Below are positions 53,861 to 63,056 of a stretch of 64,000 nucleotides of DNA, piece by piece (the first letter of the stretch is position 1; each line of letters opens with the position of its first letter). The DNA is from an uncultured Gemmatimonadaceae bacterium. Its GTDB lineage: Bacteria; Gemmatimonadota; Gemmatimonadetes; Gemmatimonadales; GWC2-71-9. The notes beneath the pieces were generated by a model. That model saw only the letters and a list, made by a program, of their open reading frames with translations. It made no database searches and was not told the origin of the DNA. The translations under genes were made by a program, and so were the position numbers. Location: NCBI GenBank assembly GCA_964580055.1, contig CAZOJI010000012.1, forward strand, positions 7,581 to 71,580. The letters run 5' to 3'.

Positions 53861-55057
53861 TTGCCTGAGAAGTACTTTCGCAAAGGATTTGGACTTCGCA
53901 AAGCGGTCGCTGACACGCTCGCTGCGGATTACCACAGCCAACTCGTCGATCGGATACGAGAAAACAATTTCGAGTTGGTTGTCGGCGATCTCACCTTCCG
54001 ACTTGCCCGCGAATTCGGCTTCTGTTTTGGTGTTGAAAGGGCGGTGGAATATGCTTACGAGGCGGCAACCAAATTCAAGGGTAAACGCCTCTTTTTGATC
54101 GGCGAGATCATCCACAATCCGCATGTTAACCAAACACTCCGGCAGATGGGCGTTACGTTTTTGGAGCGCGGTGCGGACGGCCGCTTCGACTACTCCTCGA
54201 TCACCTCTGACGATGTGGTGATCATACCGGCTTTTGGCGTCACCACCCAAGACCTGTTGCATCTGCGGAAAAGAGGCTGCGTGTTGGTTGACACCACCTG
54301 CGGGTCCGTGCTGAATGTGTGGAAGCGCGTGGAGCTCTTTGCCAAAGAAGGATTCACCTCTCTGGTGCATGGCAAGTACTTCCACGAGGAAACAAAAGCT
54401 GCTGTCAGTCAGATCGAGAAACACGAGAACGGCAAATACATAATCGTGCGCGACCTCGAAGAGACAGATACGATCTGCCGGTTCATAGAGGAGGGCGGAG
54501 ATCCAGAGAATTTGCAGGAAGAGTTCGCCGATCAGGTATCCGACGGTTTCGACTTCACCCGTGATCTCGAGCGGGTGGGAATCGCGAACCAGACCACGAT
54601 GCTCGCCTCGGAGTCTTTGGCCATTGAGTTGCGCGTGAGGGAGGCACTGAGCCGCCGGTATGGCGAGGGCCAGATCGAGGAGCGTTTTCGAGCCTTCGGC
54701 ACCATATGTACAGCCACCCAGGAACGTCAGGATGCCGTTCTCGATCTGGTTCGAGGCAGGCTGGACCTGATGCTGGTTATTGGCGGCTACAACTCGAGCA
54801 ATACAAATCACCTGGCCAAGATCTGCTCGGCGCAGTGTCCTACCTTTCACATAGCGGACGCAGCGTGCATAAGCCCGGAGAACAACACCATTCGCCACAT
54901 GCCGGTGGGCTCGGCGGAAGAAGTGGAGGTGTCCGGATGGCTCGAGAAAGGTGATAGGGTGATCGGCATTACCGCGGGCGCGTCGACCCCCAACAACAAG
55001 ATCGGCGAGACGATCGAGAGGGTTCTGCTCACGCGAGGTCTTCCGGTCTCAGATTAG
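53861..55057 (+). CDS. ispH: 4-hydroxy-3-methylbut-2-enyl diphosphate reductase
   Basis: GFCFGVERA, IIHNPHV, DTTC, NQTTM, TICTATQERQ, GGYNSSNT, TAGASTP. Confidence 0.96.
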   Translation: MPEKYFRKGFGLRKAVADTLAADYHSQLVDRIRENNFELVVGDLTFRLAREFGFCFGVERAVEYAYEAATKFKGKRLFLIGEIIHNPHVNQTLRQMGVTFLERGADGRFDYSSITSDDVVIIPAFGVTTQDLLHLRKRGCVLVDTTCGSVLNVWKRVELFAKEGFTSLVHGKYFHEETKAAVSQIEKHENGKYIIVRDLEETDTICRFIEEGGDPENLQEEFADQVSDGFDFTRDLERVGIANQTTMLASESLAIELRVREALSRRYGEGQIEERFRAFGTICTATQERQDAVLDLVRGRLDLMLVIGGYNSSNTNHLAKICSAQCPTFHIADAACISPENNTIRHMPVGSAEEVEVSGWLEKGDRVIGITAGASTPNNKIGETIERVLLTRGLPVSD

Positions 55058-55075
55058 ATCCGTTATCGGGCTTCT

Positions 55076-58000
55076 CTAGAACCAATCTCTAGACTTCGAC
55101 GGCGTACGCCTGAGGTTCTTCAAAAATCTGTACGGCGATCCTGCCCCGGAGTGTTCCGGTTGTTTCTGAGAAGTAGGGCGGCGCAACTGCAGTGGCCTAA
55201 CCTCTTCCGTCAGGACGTTAACGGTTCCGTCGTCTTTAGCGAGTTTGCCGATTATCCAGAGGAACGGCTCGGTCCGGATCGTGATACGGTCGCGGTCGTA
55301 GATGTCAGGTCGCACGACGGCGTTGATCATTCCCGCCTGATCCTCGAGCAGAATGAAAGAAAACCCCTTGGCCGTTTCGGGCCTCTGACGTGCGACCACC
55401 ATGCCTGCCACCTGGACATCATCGTCCGGTTGCAGCCGGTCGAGATAATCACTTCGTACGATGGCCGGCGGCAGTGCTTCGCCCAAAAGTGTGAATGGGT
55501 GGCCGCTTGCCGAGAATCCCATGACTTGATACTCGGCCAGAAGCCGCTCGTCGCCTGGGACATCGGGGAATCGCAGGTCCTCGTATGGATGTGTGAGTGA
55601 CAACTCGAGCTGGCGGCGAACTCGGTTGTGTTCGGCCGAGTCGACCTTCGGAGGAAGCCAAAGCCCAACCTGCCAGAGGAGTTCTCTCCGCGTGAGCCCG
55701 AACGAGTCGCACCCACCGACCCAGACTAGGTGCTCGATGGCTGTCCGTGAAAGGCGGGCGGGCGCCCGCCGGACGAAGTCGGCGAGATAGAGGTAAGGAC
55801 CGTTCCGCTCGCGTTCGAGCACCACTGCCTCGGCTACGTCCAAACCCCACTCGCGCAAGAATCCCAACCCGATCCTTACCGTACCATCCTCAACGGTGCA
55901 GTGTACGTCGCTCCGATTGATGTCGGGCAACCTGACCTCGACGTCATGGCGGCCGGCATCCCTTCCGAGGGCGTCGAGCGAGTAGAACCCCATCGGCTGA
56001 TTGTTGAACAGTGCAGTGTAGTACTCTGCCGGGTGATAGTGACGGAGCCAAGCCGACTGATAAGCAAGCAGGCCGAACGCGGCGGCATGTGATTTGGGGA
56101 AACCGAAAGCGGAAAAAGCGGTCACCTGCTGGAACACCTTCTGAGCGGTAGACTCCGGTACACCACGTGATAGCGCTCCATCTCGAAACTGCTCCCAGAA
56201 CCCCTTGATCAATTCGAGCGAGCGCCGCCGGCTCATGGCTCTGCGCAGAGCTTCGGCCTGTCCGGCGTTGAACCCGGCCAATGACTGACAGACCTGCAAG
56301 ACCTGATCCTGAAAGACTATCACTCCCAACGTATCCGCGAGTGCCTCTCTCAAGAGGGGGTGGTCGACCGGAGGTTCGTAGCTTCGGTTGTTCGCAGTCG
56401 CCTGCCGCAGGGCCTCGCGACGCCGCACGTACGGGTTGACCGCACCACCAACGATCGGCCCGGGCCGCACCAAGGCAACCTCGACGGCGAGGTCTTCCAG
56501 GTTGCGAGGCCTGGTGCGCCTGACCATCTGGATCTGCGCGCGACTTTCGATCTGAAACGTCCCGACGGTGTCGCCGGAGCAAATTTGGTCGTAAACGTCT
56601 GCGTCGGAAAAGTCGATACGGCTGAGATCGGGGGGGACACCTTCGCGCTCGGCGACCAGCTCGACGCATTCCTCTACTAGTGAAAGCATACCGAGTGCGA
56701 GAAAGTCGATCTTCACGAACCTGGCGTCATCGCAAGAGTCCTTGTCCCACTGGCAGATGACCCGGTCCGGCATGGTGGCGCGCTCCAGCGGCACCAGTTC
56801 TATGAGCGGACGACTCGAGATGATCATACCGCCCACGTGTTGCGATATGTGCCGTGGCAGCCCGGCGATGTTTTCACACAAATCACCTAGATGCTGCCAA
56901 AGCGGCGACTCCGACTTGCTCCCCAGTCCGGGAAGCTTCTTCAGCTCTTCGCGCACGCTCTCCGCCGACCGATGCCCGCCCAACTTCGCGATCCTTTCGA
57001 TCTCGCCGGGTGGTAAGTCGAGCACCTTCCCAACTTCTCGCACGGCGGATCGCAGGCGATAGGTGGGGAACGAACAGACGAGACCCACGTGATCGTGACC
57101 ATAGTGCTCGTAGACGCGACGGATCAACTCCTTGCGGATATCCCGGGGAAAATCGAGGTCAATGTCCGGAATGGAGGCTAGCGTCTCGTTCAAAAACCTG
57201 CCCAGAAAGAGACGGTTGCCGATGGGATCTATATGCGACAGTCCCAGGAAATAGCAGACAATGGACGACACCGACGAACCACGGCCGCGGCCGGGCAACA
57301 GATTTGCCTTCGCGCGTCGTTCGCCCCGCCGTAAATCGGCGGCCACCTCATGTGCCAACTCCAGCAATTCACGGTACACGAGAAAGAACCCACACAAACC
57401 ATGCATCTCAATCAGCCGCAACTCCTGCTCCAGGCGACTCTCCGCTTCGATCCTGTGACACGAGCCTTGCGGATAATATTCCCCCAGCTTGGTATTGCAG
57501 AATTCGGCAAGAGCCCGAGGTGCGGTCAAACGTCCGGCACCGCGAAAGTCCGGGAAGTTGTAACCGAGATCCTTGGTCAAGTCGAACGTCTTACACCGTT
57601 CCGCGATTTGGAGTGAGTTGGCCACCGCATCGGGACGGTCACGAAACAGTGCCAGTACCTCACGAGGGGAGCGCAGAAAAAACTCGCTATTTGGCCTCCG
57701 CACCTCGTGGGACGCGTCGAGCGTGGTGCGGTGTCGGAGTGCCACCAGCACGTCATGCAGCCGATGCAGTTCTCTACGATGGTAGTGGACATCCCCAGTA
57801 GCTACCACCTGTAAGCCGATTGTAGCGGCGATGTCGCACAGCGCCAGGTTGCGAGCGCGGTCCCCGCGTACGCGGTTGCGTTGCAGCTCCAAAAAGAAAT
57901 TGTCTGGCCCAAAGATGCACGCACATTCTTCCGTAATGCGACGAGCTTCGGTGTATCCGCCGCGTTCCAGAGCGAGCGGTAACAACCCTTGGCGACACCC

Positions 58001-58366
58001 CGACAACACTATTAGCCCCTCAGCGTGCTCCCGGAGAGAGTTAAAGTCGAGGCGGGGGTCACGCCTGTCCTCGCGTGACAGATGCGCCTCGGTGATCAGA
58101 CGGCACAGGTTGGCGTACCCTGGGGGCGTCTCGACAAGCAGGGTTATGTGCGAGCCGTCGAGCAGTGTCAGCTCGGCTCCGGTAATCGCCTGCAGGCCTA
58201 TCTGTTTTGCCGCTTGGGCGAAGACCATCGAGCCGTACAGACCGTTGTGGTCGGTGAGGGCCAAGGCAGGGTAATCCAGTGTTCGTGCCTCAAACGCCAA
58301 TTGCTCGGGCAGGGTGGCGCCGTCGAGGAACGAGAATGCCGAATGACAATGGAGCTCAGCGTACAT
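55076..58366 (-). CDS. dnaE2: Error-prone DNA polymerase DnaE2 (ImuC)
   Basis: YAELHCHSAFSFLDGA, TDH, GRGS, PDIDLDF, KIDFLALGML, FQIESRAQ, GFPKSHA, QPMGFY, RQRP.TAKG, terminal SRDWF. Confidence 0.95.
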   Translation of the reverse strand: MYAELHCHSAFSFLDGATLPEQLAFEARTLDYPALALTDHNGLYGSMVFAQAAKQIGLQAITGAELTLLDGSHITLLVETPPGYANLCRLITEAHLSREDRRDPRLDFNSLREHAEGLIVLSGCRQGLLPLALERGGYTEARRITEECACIFGPDNFFLELQRNRVRGDRARNLALCDIAATIGLQVVATGDVHYHRRELHRLHDVLVALRHRTTLDASHEVRRPNSEFFLRSPREVLALFRDRPDAVANSLQIAERCKTFDLTKDLGYNFPDFRGAGRLTAPRALAEFCNTKLGEYYPQGSCHRIEAESRLEQELRLIEMHGLCGFFLVYRELLELAHEVAADLRRGERRAKANLLPGRGRGSSVSSIVCYFLGLSHIDPIGNRLFLGRFLNETLASIPDIDLDFPRDIRKELIRRVYEHYGHDHVGLVCSFPTYRLRSAVREVGKVLDLPPGEIERIAKLGGHRSAESVREELKKLPGLGSKSESPLWQHLGDLCENIAGLPRHISQHVGGMIISSRPLIELVPLERATMPDRVICQWDKDSCDDARFVKIDFLALGMLSLVEECVELVAEREGVPPDLSRIDFSDADVYDQICSGDTVGTFQIESRAQIQMVRRTRPRNLEDLAVEVALVRPGPIVGGAVNPYVRRREALRQATANNRSYEPPVDHPLLREALADTLGVIVFQDQVLQVCQSLAGFNAGQAEALRRAMSRRRSLELIKGFWEQFRDGALSRGVPESTAQKVFQQVTAFSAFGFPKSHAAAFGLLAYQSAWLRHYHPAEYYTALFNNQPMGFYSLDALGRDAGRHDVEVRLPDINRSDVHCTVEDGTVRIGLGFLREWGLDVAEAVVLERERNGPYLYLADFVRRAPARLSRTAIEHLVWVGGCDSFGLTRRELLWQVGLWLPPKVDSAEHNRVRRQLELSLTHPYEDLRFPDVPGDERLLAEYQVMGFSASGHPFTLLGEALPPAIVRSDYLDRLQPDDDVQVAGMVVARQRPETAKGFSFILLEDQAGMINAVVRPDIYDRDRITIRTEPFLWIIGKLAKDDGTVNVLTEEVRPLQLRRPTSQKQPEHSGAGSPYRFLKNLRRTPSKSRDWF

Positions 58367-58506
58367 GGTTGGGACTGTGGTGGCAGTTTCGGCTCAGCCT
58401 CACCATAGGGTAGTAGTATCGGGAGAGGCGGCAGTGCCTGTGGCTTCAGCCGGCTGCACCTGATTAGCTGTGGGTTGAGGGATGTGCATTCCTCGCCCTT
58501 TCCTCC

Positions 58507-58929
58507 TTACGGCTGCTGCAAAAACCAGTTGTCGGTAAACAGATCCTCATACAGAACCACGTGTTTCCCTCCTTCCAGGATCACCTCCACATAGCGCCGC
58601 AAAATCGGTTCACGCCACCACTCGTCATGGACGCACCATATTTCCAGAACCGATTCCACGCGCTTTCCGTTCGCACGGTTCTTCGCAGCTTCGCTCTCCG
58701 CTGCTTCTACCAGTTGCTCACTATCTGCGGAGCTGCGGGACTCGAGAGTCGTTGAGCTACTGGACCCTAGCGTCGTTGGGCTGCCGTAGTCCGCCACAAG
58801 AGACGGCAGTCCGGCATCGTCCAACTCGACTTTGACAGGCCGAGGGAGGTTGAGGGGCCGCAGCAGGTCTGCCCGTACTCTGGTGTCGGAGCGCGGCTCT
58901 CGCTTGGTAGTGGTCTTCGTCACGATCAA
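58507..58929 (-). CDS. Small Trp-rich accessory protein (DUF6504-like)
   Basis: VLEIWCVHDEWWREPILRRY..LY.D..WF between imuB and dnaE2. Confidence 0.7.
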   Translation of the reverse strand: MIVTKTTTKREPRSDTRVRADLLRPLNLPRPVKVELDDAGLPSLVADYGSPTTLGSSSSTTLESRSSADSEQLVEAAESEAAKNRANGKRVESVLEIWCVHDEWWREPILRRYVEVILEGGKHVVLYEDLFTDNWFLQQP

Positions 58930-58932
58930 CCG

Positions 58933-60381
58933 TCAAGGGTCATAGTCAATCAAGGCGTAACGACGTTCGGGAATGCGCGACCGGGGAGCGACCTCAACGA
59001 CGCGGTACATGGAAGTACGTCGAAATCTCGTCTTCATTTCATGGACCGCCGCGCGCAGCGCTCGGCTGCGGCCGGCTCGCGCGCTGCTGCTGGCATCTCG
59101 AGCAAAGAGCTGCAGTTCTTTGGTACCGCGCACGAACGCGAGAAACTCTATCGCCAGGTTTTCCACGGCTCCGGTGGGTGGCACCGCGGCGAGTCGGCTC
59201 TTGAGCAACCCGCCTATATGCTCCCTGTCGGCCGATGGATCCTTGAGAGTACAGTGAATCGACCAGGAAGCCCCATGTTCCTGTCGTGCCCTCGCGCCAA
59301 CCTCCAAGATGCGCCAGCCGGAACGCCGGGGATGGCGCAACGCGCGCTCGATCAGCCGGTCCAGAGCGTTGCCGAGCATTGCCAGGTCGGCGATTGGATG
59401 CGGAAACTCGATCTCCGAGACGATGGGTTCGGGCTCCTCGCGGCCGATTACCGGATCGGCTGCGTCGCCGGTGGCCAGTCTCCACAGTCGACGCCCCTCA
59501 CTGCCGAACTGCGACACAACCGCTACCTCAGGCAACTGCGCGAGATCTCGCACCGTCCGAATGCTCAACTGCACGAGTCGCCGGTAGGTTTCAGGACTCA
59601 TCGGCAACACGCCAATGGGCTGCGAGGCCAGGAATTCGGCTCTGTCCTCATCGGTTACGAAAAACTCTCCACCAAGAGGTGCCTTCGTGGCCGCTACCCA
59701 GGCCGTGAACTTGCCACGAGCCCAGCCCAACCGGGCTGCTGACACCCACCCTTCCGCACCGATAACCGCCTCGACTGCCTCAACCTGCCGCCTCGGCTCG
59801 CCATAAAGCCCCTCCAGTCCGTCCACTCCCACAAACACCCTCCCCAACTCGACCGGCTCGACAACTGGACTCACTGTGCTAAGCGACTTCACCAATCGCG
59901 TGAACCGCTCGTCGTAGTAGACCGGATCCGGTTCCCAGACGGAGAGTGCAGGACACAACCCCACAGCTTGGCTCATCGTCATACCAGGCTTTACACCCAA
60001 TTCGCGAGCGCCTGGCCCGACCTGCCAGATGCGCCGCCAATCGTCGGGTGCCAGGAGCGCCTTGGCTAGCTCGGCCGCCTCAGGACGGCGGAGTTCTTCG
60101 CAACGGAGAGCGAATCTCGGAATCCAAATGCAGACGGCGAGCTCGGAATTGAGGGCGGTAGGACGGTAGGGCGGTAAGGCGGCAGGGTGGTAGTAGGTTG
60201 GGCCTCCTGCTCTCTCAACCTCAACCGCCCCGGTAGGTGCAGTGGTACCTCGGTGAGGCGCTGGCCCGGTTGCTTGCGTGACTGCTGCCCGCTGCCCGTT
60301 GGACTCAACACGTTGCACGCTGCCCGCTGTACACTGCATGCCCTTCCGTCCTCCCGTTTCCTTGCTCTCCGCCACCCTCAT
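58933..60381 (-). CDS. imuB: ImuB-like inactive Y-family polymerase
   Basis: ARELGVKPGMTMSQA..CP, SPVVE (no catalytic DE), LEGLYG, LPI.VL, QLF motif, terminal IPERR; ATGA-coupled to the upstream gene. Confidence 0.85.
   Translation of the reverse strand: MRVAESKETGGRKGMQCTAGSVQRVESNGQRAAVTQATGPAPHRGTTAPTGAVEVERAGGPTYYHPAALPPYRPTALNSELAVCIWIPRFALRCEELRRPEAAELAKALLAPDDWRRIWQVGPGARELGVKPGMTMSQAVGLCPALSVWEPDPVYYDERFTRLVKSLSTVSPVVEPVELGRVFVGVDGLEGLYGEPRRQVEAVEAVIGAEGWVSAARLGWARGKFTAWVAATKAPLGGEFFVTDEDRAEFLASQPIGVLPMSPETYRRLVQLSIRTVRDLAQLPEVAVVSQFGSEGRRLWRLATGDAADPVIGREEPEPIVSEIEFPHPIADLAMLGNALDRLIERALRHPRRSGWRILEVGARARQEHGASWSIHCTLKDPSADREHIGGLLKSRLAAVPPTGAVENLAIEFLAFVRGTKELQLFARDASSSARAGRSRALRAAVHEMKTRFRRTSMYRVVEVAPRSRIPERRYALIDYDP
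60153..60339. repeat. Degenerate 8-mer (GGRCGGTA x5) and 7-mer (GCTGCMC) arrays within the imuB 5' extension
   Basis: GGGCGGTA GGACGGTA GGGCGGTA AGGCGGCA GGGTGGTA at 60153-60192; GCTGCCC units at 60284-60339. Confidence 0.65.
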
Positions 60382-61385
60382 AACAAACTCAGCTGCGCTT
60401 CAGGCTCGGCCTGTCGTGGCTCTTCTCTACTGAACGGATCTGCGGTGCTCAATCCGTGTTTGCGCGCAATCTTTTCGAATCTGCGCTCAATTGCCTTCAG
60501 GTAATCGGCGGGAGCACTCTGACCTTTGTGGTATGCGGCTCGATATCGTGGGACCAGGTTGGGGAAATGCTGCTCGATTACCGGTAAGAATTCGTCTCGG
60601 ACCGACGGGTAGATTCGCAGCACCGAGGGGCAAACGAACTTCGCCCCGGCATGCTCGGCCGCGACCATCAGTGCTTCGATCTCAAAGATCGAGTCCGTGA
60701 CACCGGGAAGCACCGGCGCGGCATTGATACCGGCGGTAACCCCCGCCTCTCGCAACCTGCAGATCGCACGGAGTCGCGCGTTGGGCGAGGGTGAGCGTCG
60801 CTCAAACAGTCCGATCAGCCGCTTGCTGCTGCAAATCAGAGAAAGAAATACCGTTACCTCGTGCTTGCGCCCGAGTTCCCGTAGCACATCGATATCGCGG
60901 CATACGAGAGGACTCTTGGTTGTAACGCCGAGTCGCAGACCCTCAACGTCAAGCAACCGCTCGAGAATTGAGCGCGTGATACCGAAGTGCCGCTCGGCTG
61001 GCTGATACGGGTCGGTGGCAGTCCCGATCGCCAAAGTCGCGGGATCAGCAGGCGAACTCGCCCTGTTGATTCGCGCGAGGTCGCGTTCGAGTGCATTCAG
61101 CACCGCACTGCGTTGCTTAACGAAGATGTGTCGGGTGAAATCCGCCTCGCGGTTTGACCTCGCAGGCTTCGCGAACTGCCCATAAAGCAACTCAGCCGCG
61201 TGGTGTGTACGTTCCACCACATACCGGTGCGTGTAATGGGCATAACAGTAGGTGCAGCCCAGCTCGCATCCCACGTAGGGGTTCATAGACCAAAACTCCA
61301 TACCAGTGCTTTTGGGGGAGTTGGCGAGCGACTTCACGTTGAGTTCGATAAATTTGGTTCTTCCTCTCTTCCCACCTCCATTCAC
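60378..61385 (-). CDS. SplB-related DNA-repair radical SAM protein (Rv2578c/PA0069-like)
   Basis: NPYVGCELGCTYCYA, IGTATDPYQPAE, TTKS, APVLPGVTD; GTG 61385 preferred over 61541. Confidence 0.88.
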   Translation of the reverse strand: MNGGGKRGRTKFIELNVKSLANSPKSTGMEFWSMNPYVGCELGCTYCYAHYTHRYVVERTHHAAELLYGQFAKPARSNREADFTRHIFVKQRSAVLNALERDLARINRASSPADPATLAIGTATDPYQPAERHFGITRSILERLLDVEGLRLGVTTKSPLVCRDIDVLRELGRKHEVTVFLSLICSSKRLIGLFERRSPSPNARLRAICRLREAGVTAGINAAPVLPGVTDSIFEIEALMVAAEHAGAKFVCPSVLRIYPSVRDEFLPVIEQHFPNLVPRYRAAYHKGQSAPADYLKAIERRFEKIARKHGLSTADPFSREEPRQAEPEAQLSLL

Positions 61386-61389
61386 CTCG

Positions 61390-61512
61390 GGACGGTACGG
61401 AGCGGTAGGAGACGGCAAGAGACGGTATTGGGTTGGGTGCAGTGCCGCATGCATGCCGTTTTCAAAGGTTTCCACACTGCGCCTTACCGCCCCTTTGCCA
61501 CCTCTTACCGCC
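61390..61512. repeat. Two oppositely oriented degenerate ~10-bp arrays (core CGGTA / TACCG)
   Basis: GGACGGTACG GAGCGGTAGG AGACGGCAAG AGACGGTATT at 61390-61429; TTACCGCC units at 61483-61512. Confidence 0.55.
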
Positions 61513-61518
61513 ATCTCT

Positions 61519-61704
61519 TCACCCACACCGGCTCCAACCACACAAAGGACAGAAGAAACAACCAGAACTCGGGTAGATGATCCCCTGGCACTCCGGGCAC
61601 CTTAGAACATCGATTTGCACAGGGCTGTAGTCGCGCTGGACACGGAGATGTGGACGTGGCAACATGGTCGCGGCAACACCAATGTTCGGTTTGTCTTTGG
61701 TCAT
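61519..61704 (-). CDS. Small Zn-ribbon protein resembling the C-terminal tail of class II ribonucleotide reductases
   Basis: CPECQG..SGCFFCPLCGWSRCG; 61 aa; first gene of the cassette. Confidence 0.7.
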   Translation of the reverse strand: MTKDKPNIGVAATMLPRPHLRVQRDYSPVQIDVLRCPECQGIIYPSSGCFFCPLCGWSRCG

Positions 61705-61706
61705 GG

Positions 61707-61725
61707 TACCGAATATATACCGAAC
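61707..61725 (-). promoter_or_regulatory. Candidate LexA (SOS) box
   Basis: Minus strand GTTC-GGTATAT-ATTC (TACCGAA direct repeat, 11-bp period) 6 nt upstream of the ATG at 61704. Confidence 0.6.
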
Positions 61726-61883
61726 ATCGCTCCGGCACAACCCTGCGAAACAAAACGTTATGTGGCTTCCGAGCGGCTATCCTTGCGCGTTACTCCCGGA
61801 GCGGTGAAATTCCGCCCGTTTATCGTGTCAGCTTCGGCACTCTTTTCTCTATCGCGGCTATATGCGGCCACAGCAATGATCCG

Positions 61884-63056
61884 ATGACCGGCGGTTCACA
61901 CCCGCCAGCCACTACAGCAGCAAAGCTCGCAACTCACCCGCTGGCGCGGGTAGCGGCAATTCTCTCTCTATTGTTCGTATTCCTGGTCGGCGTTAACGGG
62001 CTGGGCGATGGTTTCAAATCACTGGGCAACGATTTCCTGGACGCGTTCTTCACCGCCACGGAAAACCCCTTCATCGGATTGATGGTCGGTATCCTCGCCA
62101 CGTCGCTGGTACAGAGTTCGTCCGTCTCTACGTCGCTGATCGTCGCCCTCGTGGCGGCTCCGGAGAACCCGCTTCCGTTAGCCAACGCGGTCCCGATGGT
62201 GATGGGTGCCAACATCGGTACCACTGTCACCAACACTCTCGTTTCGCTGGCCCATATGGGTAGGAAAGAGGAGTTACGCAGGGCCTTTGCCGTGGCCACC
62301 TGTCACGACTTCTTCAACGTCCTGGCCGTTTTGGTGTTGCTGCCGCTCGAAATGCTGACCGGCTACCTCCGGTTCTTGGCCGACAAGCTTTCTTCCTTCG
62401 TGACCGGGCTGGGCGGCGTGGATTACGAGAGTCCGATCAAGGGTGCCCTGAAGGCTGCGGTCGATCCGATAAAAGCGGTCACCCATCTTGCGTTCGAGTC
62501 GACGCAGCTTCAGGCCCTCTTGCAGATTGTCGTATGCGCGTGTTTGATCTTCTTCGCGCTGTTGCTTCTAGTAAGGATCTTGCGGGCGACCATGCGAGCT
62601 CGCGTGGAGGCCAGCGTCTCGAGGGCGTTCGACCAGAACGCGCTGCTCGCGATGTTTGTGGGCATGGCGGTAACCGTGATGGTGCAGTCCAGTTCGATCA
62701 CTACCTCGCTGCTGGTACCGCTGGCGGCTGCGGGCGTATTGACGCTACGGCAGGCGTTCCCCATCACCATCGGTTCCAACATCGGGACCACTCTCACCGC
62801 ACTGTTGGCGGCCATGGCGGCGACAGGCGAGAATGCGGTCGCGGGAATCACGATTGCCTTGGTTCATTTGTTGTTCAACTTGAGCGGTACGTTGCTGATC
62901 TATCCGGTGAGACGAATTCGTAATATTCCGCTGTCGGGTGCCAGGTGGTTCGCGGACGTGGTTGTGGAACACCGCCACGTGGCGATCATCGCCATATTAT
63001 TCTCCTTCTACGGTGTTCCTGCGCTCTTTGCGGTGCTGAACAATCTCCTCACGTAG
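61884..63056 (+). CDS. Na/Pi cotransporter family protein
   Basis: Two QSSS..TS and G(A/S)NIGT repeats. Confidence 0.93.
   Translation: MTGGSHPPATTAAKLATHPLARVAAILSLLFVFLVGVNGLGDGFKSLGNDFLDAFFTATENPFIGLMVGILATSLVQSSSVSTSLIVALVAAPENPLPLANAVPMVMGANIGTTVTNTLVSLAHMGRKEELRRAFAVATCHDFFNVLAVLVLLPLEMLTGYLRFLADKLSSFVTGLGGVDYESPIKGALKAAVDPIKAVTHLAFESTQLQALLQIVVCACLIFFALLLLVRILRATMRARVEASVSRAFDQNALLAMFVGMAVTVMVQSSSITTSLLVPLAAAGVLTLRQAFPITIGSNIGTTLTALLAAMAATGENAVAGITIALVHLLFNLSGTLLIYPVRRIRNIPLSGARWFADVVVEHRHVAIIAILFSFYGVPALFAVLNNLLT

Follow-up and report, generated by a model that had tools for sequence, protein, structure and literature searches.

The stretch of DNA analysed here (hereafter the window) comprises 64,000 nucleotides (nt) from an uncultured Gemmatimonadaceae bacterium (GCA_964580055.1, contig CAZOJI010000012.1; all positions are in window numbering), and belongs to an assembly that is 94.6% complete and consists of 204 contigs. 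At 55076-61725 it carries five minus-strand open reading frames (ORFs) encoding, in order, a zinc-ribbon (Zn-ribbon) protein, a radical SAM enzyme (rSAM), a Y-family polymerase homologue (PolY), a tryptophan-rich (Trp-rich) protein and the error-prone polymerase DnaE2. These five co-oriented genes and their order had been proposed in a first-pass annotation made from the sequence alone, and they were borne out by the ORFs and by Pfam and NCBIfam matches of rSAM, of PolY (IMS and IMS_C domains) and of DnaE2. We consider it likely that the five genes form one operon under a single LexA-type operator, put together from two known SOS modules that became fused in this lineage.

The Trp-rich protein, like the Zn-ribbon protein, matched nothing in Pfam, and it had no NCBIfam match either. 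It has 70 close homologues, and a profile search of a library of 1.84 billion proteins returned 895 representatives at E <= 0.001, of which the best 150 were all 50-197 amino acids (aa) long. The standalone members share an arm (LRPLNxPxxVxV) and a C-terminal domain (WRIDDEWWR...RRY...GG...DLxTGxWFxQ), and the window protein is built of such an N-terminal arm, a variable linker and a Trp-rich domain. Because no fused or long ImuB was among the best 150 of the 895 library matches, the link to ImuB was made by profile-profile comparison: 214 standalone proteins, compared with the last 130 residues from each of 120 ImuB proteins, gave an hhalign probability of 91.1% (E 1e-6) over 76 columns, which take in both the arm and the domain. 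When the same 120 ImuB were mixed with 43,675 ORF decoys from the host genome of the window and searched with a hidden Markov model (HMM), 38 of them outranked every decoy, the match always stopping 21 residues short of the ImuB C-terminus. An AlphaFold2 model of the window protein is all-beta with six strands (pLDDT 68 for the whole, 83-89 for the C-terminal blocks except one at 69); Foldseek found nothing for it in the Protein Data Bank (PDB) at E <= 0.001 (best 0.91), and the sequence profile gave a chance-level match to the PDB (E 1.6). An all-beta fold with no PDB match is also what Timinskas and Venclovas report for the C-terminal domain of ImuB, which is known as ImuB-C. On these profile comparisons, the Trp-rich protein is a detached ImuB-C, and the host genome holds one copy. 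Several results weigh against this assignment, beginning with the absence of fused ImuB from the best library matches just mentioned. The ImuB reference set was narrow, containing Rhizobiaceae only, with at least 72% identity to the query region; the profile met a single Agrobacterium ImuB (residues 449-498 of 503) at E 0.2 and a Thermomicrobium ImuB-like protein weakly, at E 0.044; and the matches to Pfam DUF6504 that distant standalone members have in common with the C-terminus of the Agrobacterium ImuB are weak and below the cut-off.

PolY ends 66 residues past its IMS_C domain. In an alignment to DinB (structure 6jum), the acidic pair of the DinB motif DEAYL falls on G-R of the PolY sequence ELGRVFVG. 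Where active enzymes have their first acidic motif, PolY has CIWIPRFALRCE, which contains no Asp. The aligned acidic positions of DinB we take to be catalytic residues; to judge from the alignment they have been lost, and PolY is catalytically dead (hence iPolY below). It is the sole Y-family gene of the host genome and ends before the ImuB-C domain, and no fused ImuB was present in the host assembly. The gene named imuB in the first-pass annotation thus encodes a dead PolY, an ImuB that lacks the C-terminal domain. Across 81 sequences its tail shows strong conservation, running from ELQLF through ARAGRRRALRxAxxEIKxR..LY.V to EVxPWSRxPERRYALIDfeP. The middle stretch (ARAGRRRALRxAxxEIKxR) resembles the N-terminus of the organism's own RecA with a local score of 34; since the same score was reached by 24 of 1000 shuffles, this RecA-N-terminus-like motif is suggestive only, and a likeness so weak on its own counts against assigning the tail a RecA contact. 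The last 20 residues of PolY (EVxPWSRxPERRYALIDfeP, 58936-58995) are among its best-conserved parts in the 81 sequences, and may form a docking site for ImuB-C or for DnaE2.

For the dnaE2 product the best NCBIfam model was NF004225 ("error-prone DNA polymerase"), with 910.8 bits; that this lies just under the cut-off of 939 is a reservation about the assignment. The protein has the full Pol III alpha set of Pfam domains (PHP, NTPase, finger, HhH, OB), and shares about 35% identity with DnaE2 from the phylum's canonical cassettes and 38% with a Thermomicrobium DnaE2. The closest plasmid-borne DnaE2 is on the Thermomicrobium roseum megaplasmid (L083), where it follows genes for a "recombinase A" of 357 aa and for a reduced ImuB-like protein of 416 aa whose annotation is "hypothetical"; that locus looks like an ImuA3-type cassette.

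No RecA-like ImuA or ImuA' gene was found in the cassette, its flanks or the host assembly. The ImuA model NF033429 met only RecA in the host genome, which scored 45.7 bits where the cut-off is 150; an Agrobacterium ImuA query had no match there; and a RecA-family search of the genome returned RecA and one sub-threshold ORF of 516 aa. Within the window's own family, the matches to NF033429 were of the RecA type only, among the matches listed. The first-pass claim that no imuA lies in or beside the cassette is confirmed by these searches; the absence from the genome is not absolute, as the assembly is incomplete and in many contigs, which tempers the reading of the system as ImuA-less.

A dead PolY, a standalone ImuB-C and a DnaE2 without ImuA make up a system that has been described. 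Aravind et al. (2013) named ImuB-C and described standalone versions of it, some accompanied by DnaE2 and in part also by an inactive DinB, others by SplB-like radical SAM genes. Timinskas and Venclovas (2019; 2026, NAR) describe a system of iPolY, ImuB-C, DnaE2 and RecA without ImuA ("split ImuB", DnaE2X group), an example being the Kyrpidia tusciae type with its putative DnaE2-iPolY-ImuB-C-RecA mutasome. The core cassette of the window is this published split-ImuB mutasome in one more lineage; Gemmatimonadota are not mentioned in the main texts of the split-ImuB papers, and the supplements may hold entries.

The second constituent of the operon is the rSAM gene. Its product matches PF04055 in Pfam, and its best NCBIfam family matches were the Rv2578c model (E 1.4e-51, 175.4 bits, curated cut-off 430) and the PA0069 model (E 2.2e-50, 171.7 bits, curated cut-off 360). 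The scores lie far under both cut-offs, and the enzyme is therefore placed in a separate subfamily, as a relative of these proteins and not an equivalog; the spore-photoproduct-lyase model was not among its NCBIfam matches at E <= 0.01. The CxxxCxxC core reads CELGCTYC, and its cysteines (C83, C87, C90) are invariant in the rSAM alignment. The host genome has one rSAM of the COG1533-type SOS family, and homologues carry the JGI label "DNA repair photolyase".

The rSAM protein ends in QLSLL. Of 120 homologues, 110 have a motif of the form Q[LIMV]x[LIMF][LFWM] within their C-terminal 45 residues, whereas it turned up in 5 of 771 control windows drawn from these proteins. In five out of five PA0069-type homologues of Proteobacteria, drawn from plasmid records, the C-terminus is Q-x-x-L-[FL]. 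The consensus for binding to the beta clamp is of the type QL[SD]LF or Q-L-x-L-[FL]. The terminal pentapeptide of rSAM fits this consensus and is a putative beta-clamp-type motif; literature searches found no paper that links the family to the clamp. The motif also occurs in rSAM proteins encoded away from mutasomes: on a Gemmatirosa plasmid, the rSAM protein ends in QLSLGI and its gene has no cassette nearer than 7 kilobases (kb), and in one annotated case a proteobacterial homologue with the same end motif is not adjoined by mutasome genes. As the first-pass annotation had noted for SplB-like genes, SOS control of splB has been reported from several phyla.

The small protein encoded ahead of rSAM has a six-cysteine array, CPxC-x9-CxxCxxCGWxxC. 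It was hit by NF006417 (B12-dependent ribonucleotide reductase, E 1.6e-6) at model positions 727-759 of 759 only, that is, at the very end of the model. In an alignment of 39 such Zn-ribbon proteins the invariant residues were A2, C36, P37, C39, C49, C52, C55, G56 and C60. For the tail of the class II ribonucleotide reductase NrdJd (cysteines 920, 923, 933, 936, 939 and 945; Loderer et al. 2017 JBC, PMC5704485), four cysteines are reported to bind zinc and two to pass electrons to the active site. Judged by its cysteine spacing, the Zn ribbon is a stand-alone look-alike of this C-terminal array, with putative zinc binding and redox activity. Prediction of a complex of Zn ribbon, rSAM, 4Fe-4S cluster and zinc gave 0.00 in two runs, a result that speaks neither for nor against binding.

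The box in front of the Zn-ribbon gene, TTCGGTATATATTCGG, ends 4 nt ahead of the ATG and contains the stretch TATATT. The first-pass annotation had called it SOS-like, and the call stands: a 16-mer of the same type lies upstream of lexA (two copies) and of recA (one copy, 289 nt upstream of the start) in the host genome, where LexA itself was found with 199.7 bits. Base composition predicts about 11 exact matches to TTCGG-N6-TTCGG in the genome; there are 25. With an operator weight matrix built from 85 sites in relatives, the cassette site ranked first in the host genome (34.1 bits), the recA site second (26.3 bits) and a lexA site fourth. A larger SOS regulon was sought with the same matrix and not upheld: just four genome sites reached 14 bits or more, and no convincing gene follows the C49 site. 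In the recA leader (G000 contig C78, ~1860-2150, L001), tandem GAGTGCA/GAGTGGA heptamers follow right after the box, about 290 nt before the recA start. The phylum operator is, on these sites, a direct repeat, and LexA presumably binds to it; literature searches found no report on a LexA motif or SOS box of Gemmatimonadota.

At the Zn-ribbon gene the operator has a second part. An inverted repeat search found that a second copy, CCAAAGACAAACCGAA, forms a 46-nt palindrome with the first box. In relatives, a full CCGAA-N6-CCGAA follows 27 of 40 boxes proximal to the Zn-ribbon/rSAM genes as against none of 45 boxes proximal to PolY, so that the Zn/rSAM operator consists of two 16-nt direct-repeat boxes, inverted to each other and separated by a short gap, the inverted copy being degenerate in the window. 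The apparently conserved N-terminus of the Zn-ribbon protein (MTEQxPK) is largely the translated second operator copy. In 33 of the 35 loci with an identified box, the distance from the first box to the start codon is at most 8 nt (0 or -1 nt for two of them), which suggests that the messenger RNA of the Zn-ribbon unit is leaderless or nearly so. A sigma-70 promoter scan of 54800-62100 gave 0 sites, and the sole -10-like element, judged by eye, is the TATATT within the box.

Gene order in relatives shows how the operon is composed. A pattern scan with one genome per species identified 360 genomes that encode a relative of the Trp-rich protein, and the best 80 loci, all of them from Gemmatimonadota, were analysed. 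The order PolY, ImuB-C, DnaE2 was kept in every one (80/80). Once 14 loci with less than 2 kb of upstream sequence had been set aside, 66 were informative: rSAM lay upstream on the same strand in 57, adjacent to the cassette in 26 (fused loci) and across a gap of 1.05-3.6 kb in 31 (gapped loci), and was missing from nine. A Zn-ribbon match precedes rSAM in 42 of the 57. In the fused loci the box stands before the Zn ribbon in 24/26 and before PolY in 1/26; in the gapped loci PolY has its own box within 320 nt upstream in 31/31, with an exact box before the rSAM unit in 16/31; and in the loci without rSAM a box lies within 320 nt upstream of PolY in 9/9. The positions of the boxes therefore indicate two SOS units that have been fused in the lineage of the window. 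The gap usually holds a DUF72 (PF01904) gene on the opposite strand, divergent from PolY (L009:1780-2670, L072:5698-6675, L066:5585-6598 and about 27 more), and this gene may, being divergent, share the SOS box of PolY. The five-gene order seen in the window is thus conserved in close relatives (26/66) but not in the 31 gapped loci or the nine without rSAM.

The features of the locus are collected in Table 1.

Table 1. Features of the five-gene cassette and its operator, in window numbering.
Feature	Position	Strand	Evidence
LexA-type operator, direct repeat TTCGG-N6-TTCGG (TTCGGTATATATTCGG)	61709..61724	-	Sequence; lexA/recA copies; top weight-matrix match
Degenerate inverted second box copy (CCAAAGACAAACCGAA)	61685..61700	-	Inverted repeat; first codons of Zn-ribbon gene
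Zn-ribbon protein, 61 aa from ATG	61519..61704	-	NCBIfam NF006417 local match
rSAM enzyme, SplB-like, 378 aa from ATG	60378..61514	-	PF04055; Rv2578c/PA0069 models
rSAM CxxxCxxC cluster motif	61245-61268	-	Sequence
rSAM C-terminal QLSLL, putative clamp-type motif	60381-60395	-	Sequence
Y-family polymerase homologue (iPolY, ImuB without C-domain)	58933..60381	-	IMS + IMS_C (Pfam)
iPolY ELQLF clamp motif	59104-59118	-	Sequence
iPolY RecA-N-terminus-like stretch	58999-59067	-	Alignment, weak
iPolY conserved tail	58936-58995	-	Alignment of 81 sequences
Standalone ImuB-C (Trp-rich protein), 138 aa from GTG	58507..58923 (to 58929 from TTG)	-	Profile-profile match
ImuB-C N-terminal arm LRPLNLPRPV	58822-58866	-	Sequence
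ImuB-C C-terminal all-beta Trp-rich domain	58510-58659	-	AlphaFold2 model
DnaE2-type error-prone C-family polymerase, 1096 aa	55076..58366	-	NF004225; Pfam domains
Terminator-like hairpin, downstream of dnaE2 stop	55000-55015		

Some of the gene boundaries can be drawn in more than one way. An alternative TTG start of the Zn-ribbon gene at 61740 would cross the box; the rSAM ATG lies 4 nt past the Zn-ribbon stop, and a GTG at 61541 is also a possible start. Two junctions had been specified in the first-pass annotation, and each stands in part. The start of the Trp-rich gene 3 nt after the PolY stop holds from TTG, but the distance is 9 nt from GTG. The stop of rSAM does overlap the longest PolY ORF as ATGA; that ORF, however, opens with ~80 codons of low complexity (with an 8-nt tandem repeat at 60152-60183) that are kept only in the nearest relatives, the conserved core beginning near residue 80, so that the true PolY start, and therefore the coupling of rSAM to PolY, is uncertain. 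Both the PolY and the rSAM ORFs (60152-60183; 61380-61500) open with poorly conserved stretches rich in Pro, Tyr and Arg (PYRP) and encoded by TACCG-rich DNA. These may be remnants of formerly intergenic DNA that the fusion of the units brought into the reading frames, and the true start codons are uncertain; the idea that they are a structured or mobile element was dropped, as a repeat search gave just the short 8-nt tandem repeat. The cassette is flanked by ispH in convergent and a Na/Pi cotransporter gene in divergent orientation (Pfam), and therefore no imuA adjoins it.

To place the locus among the mutasomes of its phylum, 151 Gemmatimonadota genomes were sampled; the tallies include one or both of two unpublished genomes (G056 and G096), which no other result uses. 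None of the 151 had a match to NF033429 over the cut-off. A second, ImuA-like match extending past model position 140, where RecA matches end, was found in at least 26 genomes (25 without G096) among the matches listed. Four such places were inspected: two are rows of canonical imuA, fused imuB and dnaE2, the third has a RecA-like gene, an ImuB C-terminus and dnaE2, and the fourth has the imuA match only; exact boxes lie just upstream in 2/3 of the inspected cassettes. A standalone ImuB-C was encoded in 34/151 genomes and an rSAM orthologue in 96/151, and rSAM is therefore present in many genomes without a split cassette. No genome with a standalone ImuB-C was shared with the ImuA-like set (34 and at least 26 genomes, respectively), among the matches listed.

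The rSAM gene also keeps company with canonical cassettes. Seven of the 26 listed ImuA-like genomes carry it in the same orientation at most 1.5 kb upstream; of four of these loci that were inspected, three (L107-L109) show a box followed by rSAM, RecA-like imuA and fused imuB, with dnaE2 following in two and no dnaE2 match in the stretch inspected for L107, and the fourth has a second box before imuA. With rSAM and imuA in one row in sister lineages, rSAM therefore co-occurs with ImuA and does not replace it. Upstream of DnaE2 cassettes, whether split or canonical, rSAM recurs as a neighbour. The canonical cassettes of other families (L097, L099, L107-L110) have the same kind of box, several with rSAM directly upstream, and in several of the rSAM-preceded loci among these the Zn-ribbon gene was not detectable.

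What is new in the window is the wiring of known parts, in which rSAM and a Zn ribbon are joined to the described ImuA-less cassette under one damage switch. The first-pass picture of an SOS-boxed, ImuA-less dnaE2 cassette with SplB-like rSAM and Zn-ribbon genes in the same operon is supported. Of the grounds that the annotation named for its own refutation, an earlier description of the arrangement applies to the core: dead PolY, ImuB-C and DnaE2 without ImuA are in print, as is a link of ImuB-C to SplB-like genes. We infer the co-transcription of the five genes, together with the protein contacts and the rSAM substrate named below, from the arrangement of the genes and the motifs of their products. 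After damage, RecA-stimulated cleavage of LexA would free an operator that overlaps the TATATT element and the start codon. In the first module, rSAM, drawn to clamp-loaded DNA by its C-terminal QLSLL, would reverse or process a UV-type lesion by radical chemistry, and the Zn ribbon would possibly keep it reduced, as a thiol/redox helper like the class II ribonucleotide reductase array. In the second module, the dead PolY would be a scaffold on the beta clamp (through ELQLF), and probably on RecA through the RecA-N-terminus-like motif, with the separate beta-domain of ImuB-C bridging to DnaE2. Where rSAM fails, iPolY on the clamp, ImuB-C and RecA would assemble DnaE2 for error-prone bypass, RecA substituting for the absent ImuA; this assembly is the model put forward by Timinskas and Venclovas for split-ImuB systems.

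If the rSAM unit were simply an independent module, less linkage would be predicted than is seen, since rSAM stands directly upstream of both cassette kinds; this counts against a reading of mere co-regulation and leaves room for real functional coupling. One form of coupling would make rSAM, the Zn ribbon and the mutasome a two-step team acting on one clamp at a blocked primer end, by reversal and then bypass, so that the fusion reflects co-operation beyond co-regulation. Conserved clamp-type motifs on both rSAM (QLSLL) and iPolY (ELQLF) would fit such a team, as would the placing of rSAM upstream of split (57/66) and canonical cassettes (7/26 ImuA-like genomes, among the matches listed) and the ImuB-C/SplB-like radical SAM operons reported by Aravind et al. 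(2013). SOS genes often cluster without joint action, however, and rSAM is also found alone, as on the Gemmatirosa plasmid and as its excess over ImuB-C genomes indicates (96 against 34 of 151); the proteobacterial homologue with the same end motif is not beside mutasome genes in the one annotated case, and clamp binding is putative. We regard a team of this kind as unlikely. A new mutasome in which rSAM, the Zn ribbon and the Trp-rich protein jointly replace ImuA as accessories of ImuB and DnaE2 is highly improbable, for although ImuA was not found in the host genome, the genes are tightly packed behind a single box and the five-gene order recurs in 26 of the 66 informative relatives, the Trp-rich protein is ImuB-C and so a part of ImuB, rSAM shares a gene row with a RecA-like imuA in sister lineages, the PolY/ImuB-C/DnaE2 set occurs without a nearby rSAM in nine of the 66 loci and behind its own box in 31 more, rSAM is encoded in many cassette-less genomes (96 vs 34 of 151), and published work on such systems assigns the role of ImuA to RecA. 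The first-pass suggestion that rSAM and two small accessory proteins occupy the ImuA position is not supported, on the same grounds.

Beyond the fusion of two SOS modules under one operator, the end motif prompts a wider proposal, which we put forward tentatively and hold to be rather doubtful: that the SplB-like rSAM family (COG1533) is a lesion-reversal enzyme tethered to the clamp by QLSL[LF] at blocked primer ends, acting in sequence with DnaE2 mutasomes, and having in Gemmatimonadota a dedicated six-cysteine Zn-ribbon redox partner, like the array that re-reduces class II ribonucleotide reductase. To our knowledge, the function of the SOS-regulated SplB-like rSAM family has never been defined. 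A clamp-type motif shared by Gemmatimonadota and Proteobacteria gives a concrete idea of where a widespread SOS enzyme may act, and the six-cysteine neighbour, pointing to a thiol/redox helper, gives a handle on its chemistry. Because Gemmatimonadota hold both canonical and split mutasomes behind the same operator, often with the same rSAM, they lend themselves to comparisons that trace the origin of ImuA-ImuB-DnaE2 in the split form. To judge by the literature searches, the clamp-type motif of rSAM, the NrdJ-type array of its partner, the architecture of the operator and the separate occurrence of split and canonical systems among the sampled genomes are new.

Each part of the operon has a counterpart among known systems. 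The rSAM resembles the SplB-like radical SAM genes of other SOS regulons (COG1533, PA0069/Rv2578c) in its CxxxCxxC core and its best family matches; unlike them, it is accompanied by a six-cysteine Zn-ribbon gene and lies in one operon with a mutasome. The Zn ribbon shares with the zinc finger of NrdJd six cysteines of near-identical spacing (here 36, 39, 49, 52, 55 and 60), but is a free 61-aa protein encoded next to rSAM and not the tail of a reductase. The operator recalls the alphaproteobacterial LexA box, reported as the direct repeat GTTC-N7-GTTC (PMC3323433), in its 11-nt period and TTC core, the window site reading GTTC-N7-ATTC; it differs in its conserved half-site TTCGG and TATAT spacer, and at the Zn/rSAM unit an inverted second copy usually follows. 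With the canonical ImuA-ImuB-DnaE2 system, which sister Gemmatimonadota carry behind the same kind of box, the cassette has in common DnaE2, a dead Y-family scaffold with a clamp motif, the ImuB-C domain and LexA-type control, whereas here there is no ImuA, ImuB is split in two genes and DnaE2 is only about 35% identical. The closest likeness is to the split-ImuB mutasome, with its dead PolY bearing a clamp motif, standalone ImuB-C and DnaE2, its lack of ImuA and of a typical ImuB, and its operon, which is reported to be often damage-regulated; the RecA-N-terminus-like PolY tail of that system has a merely suggestive counterpart here. The window differs in the long variable linker of its ImuB-C (138 aa against a typical ~95 aa) and in the Zn-ribbon and rSAM genes that precede the cassette in the same operon.

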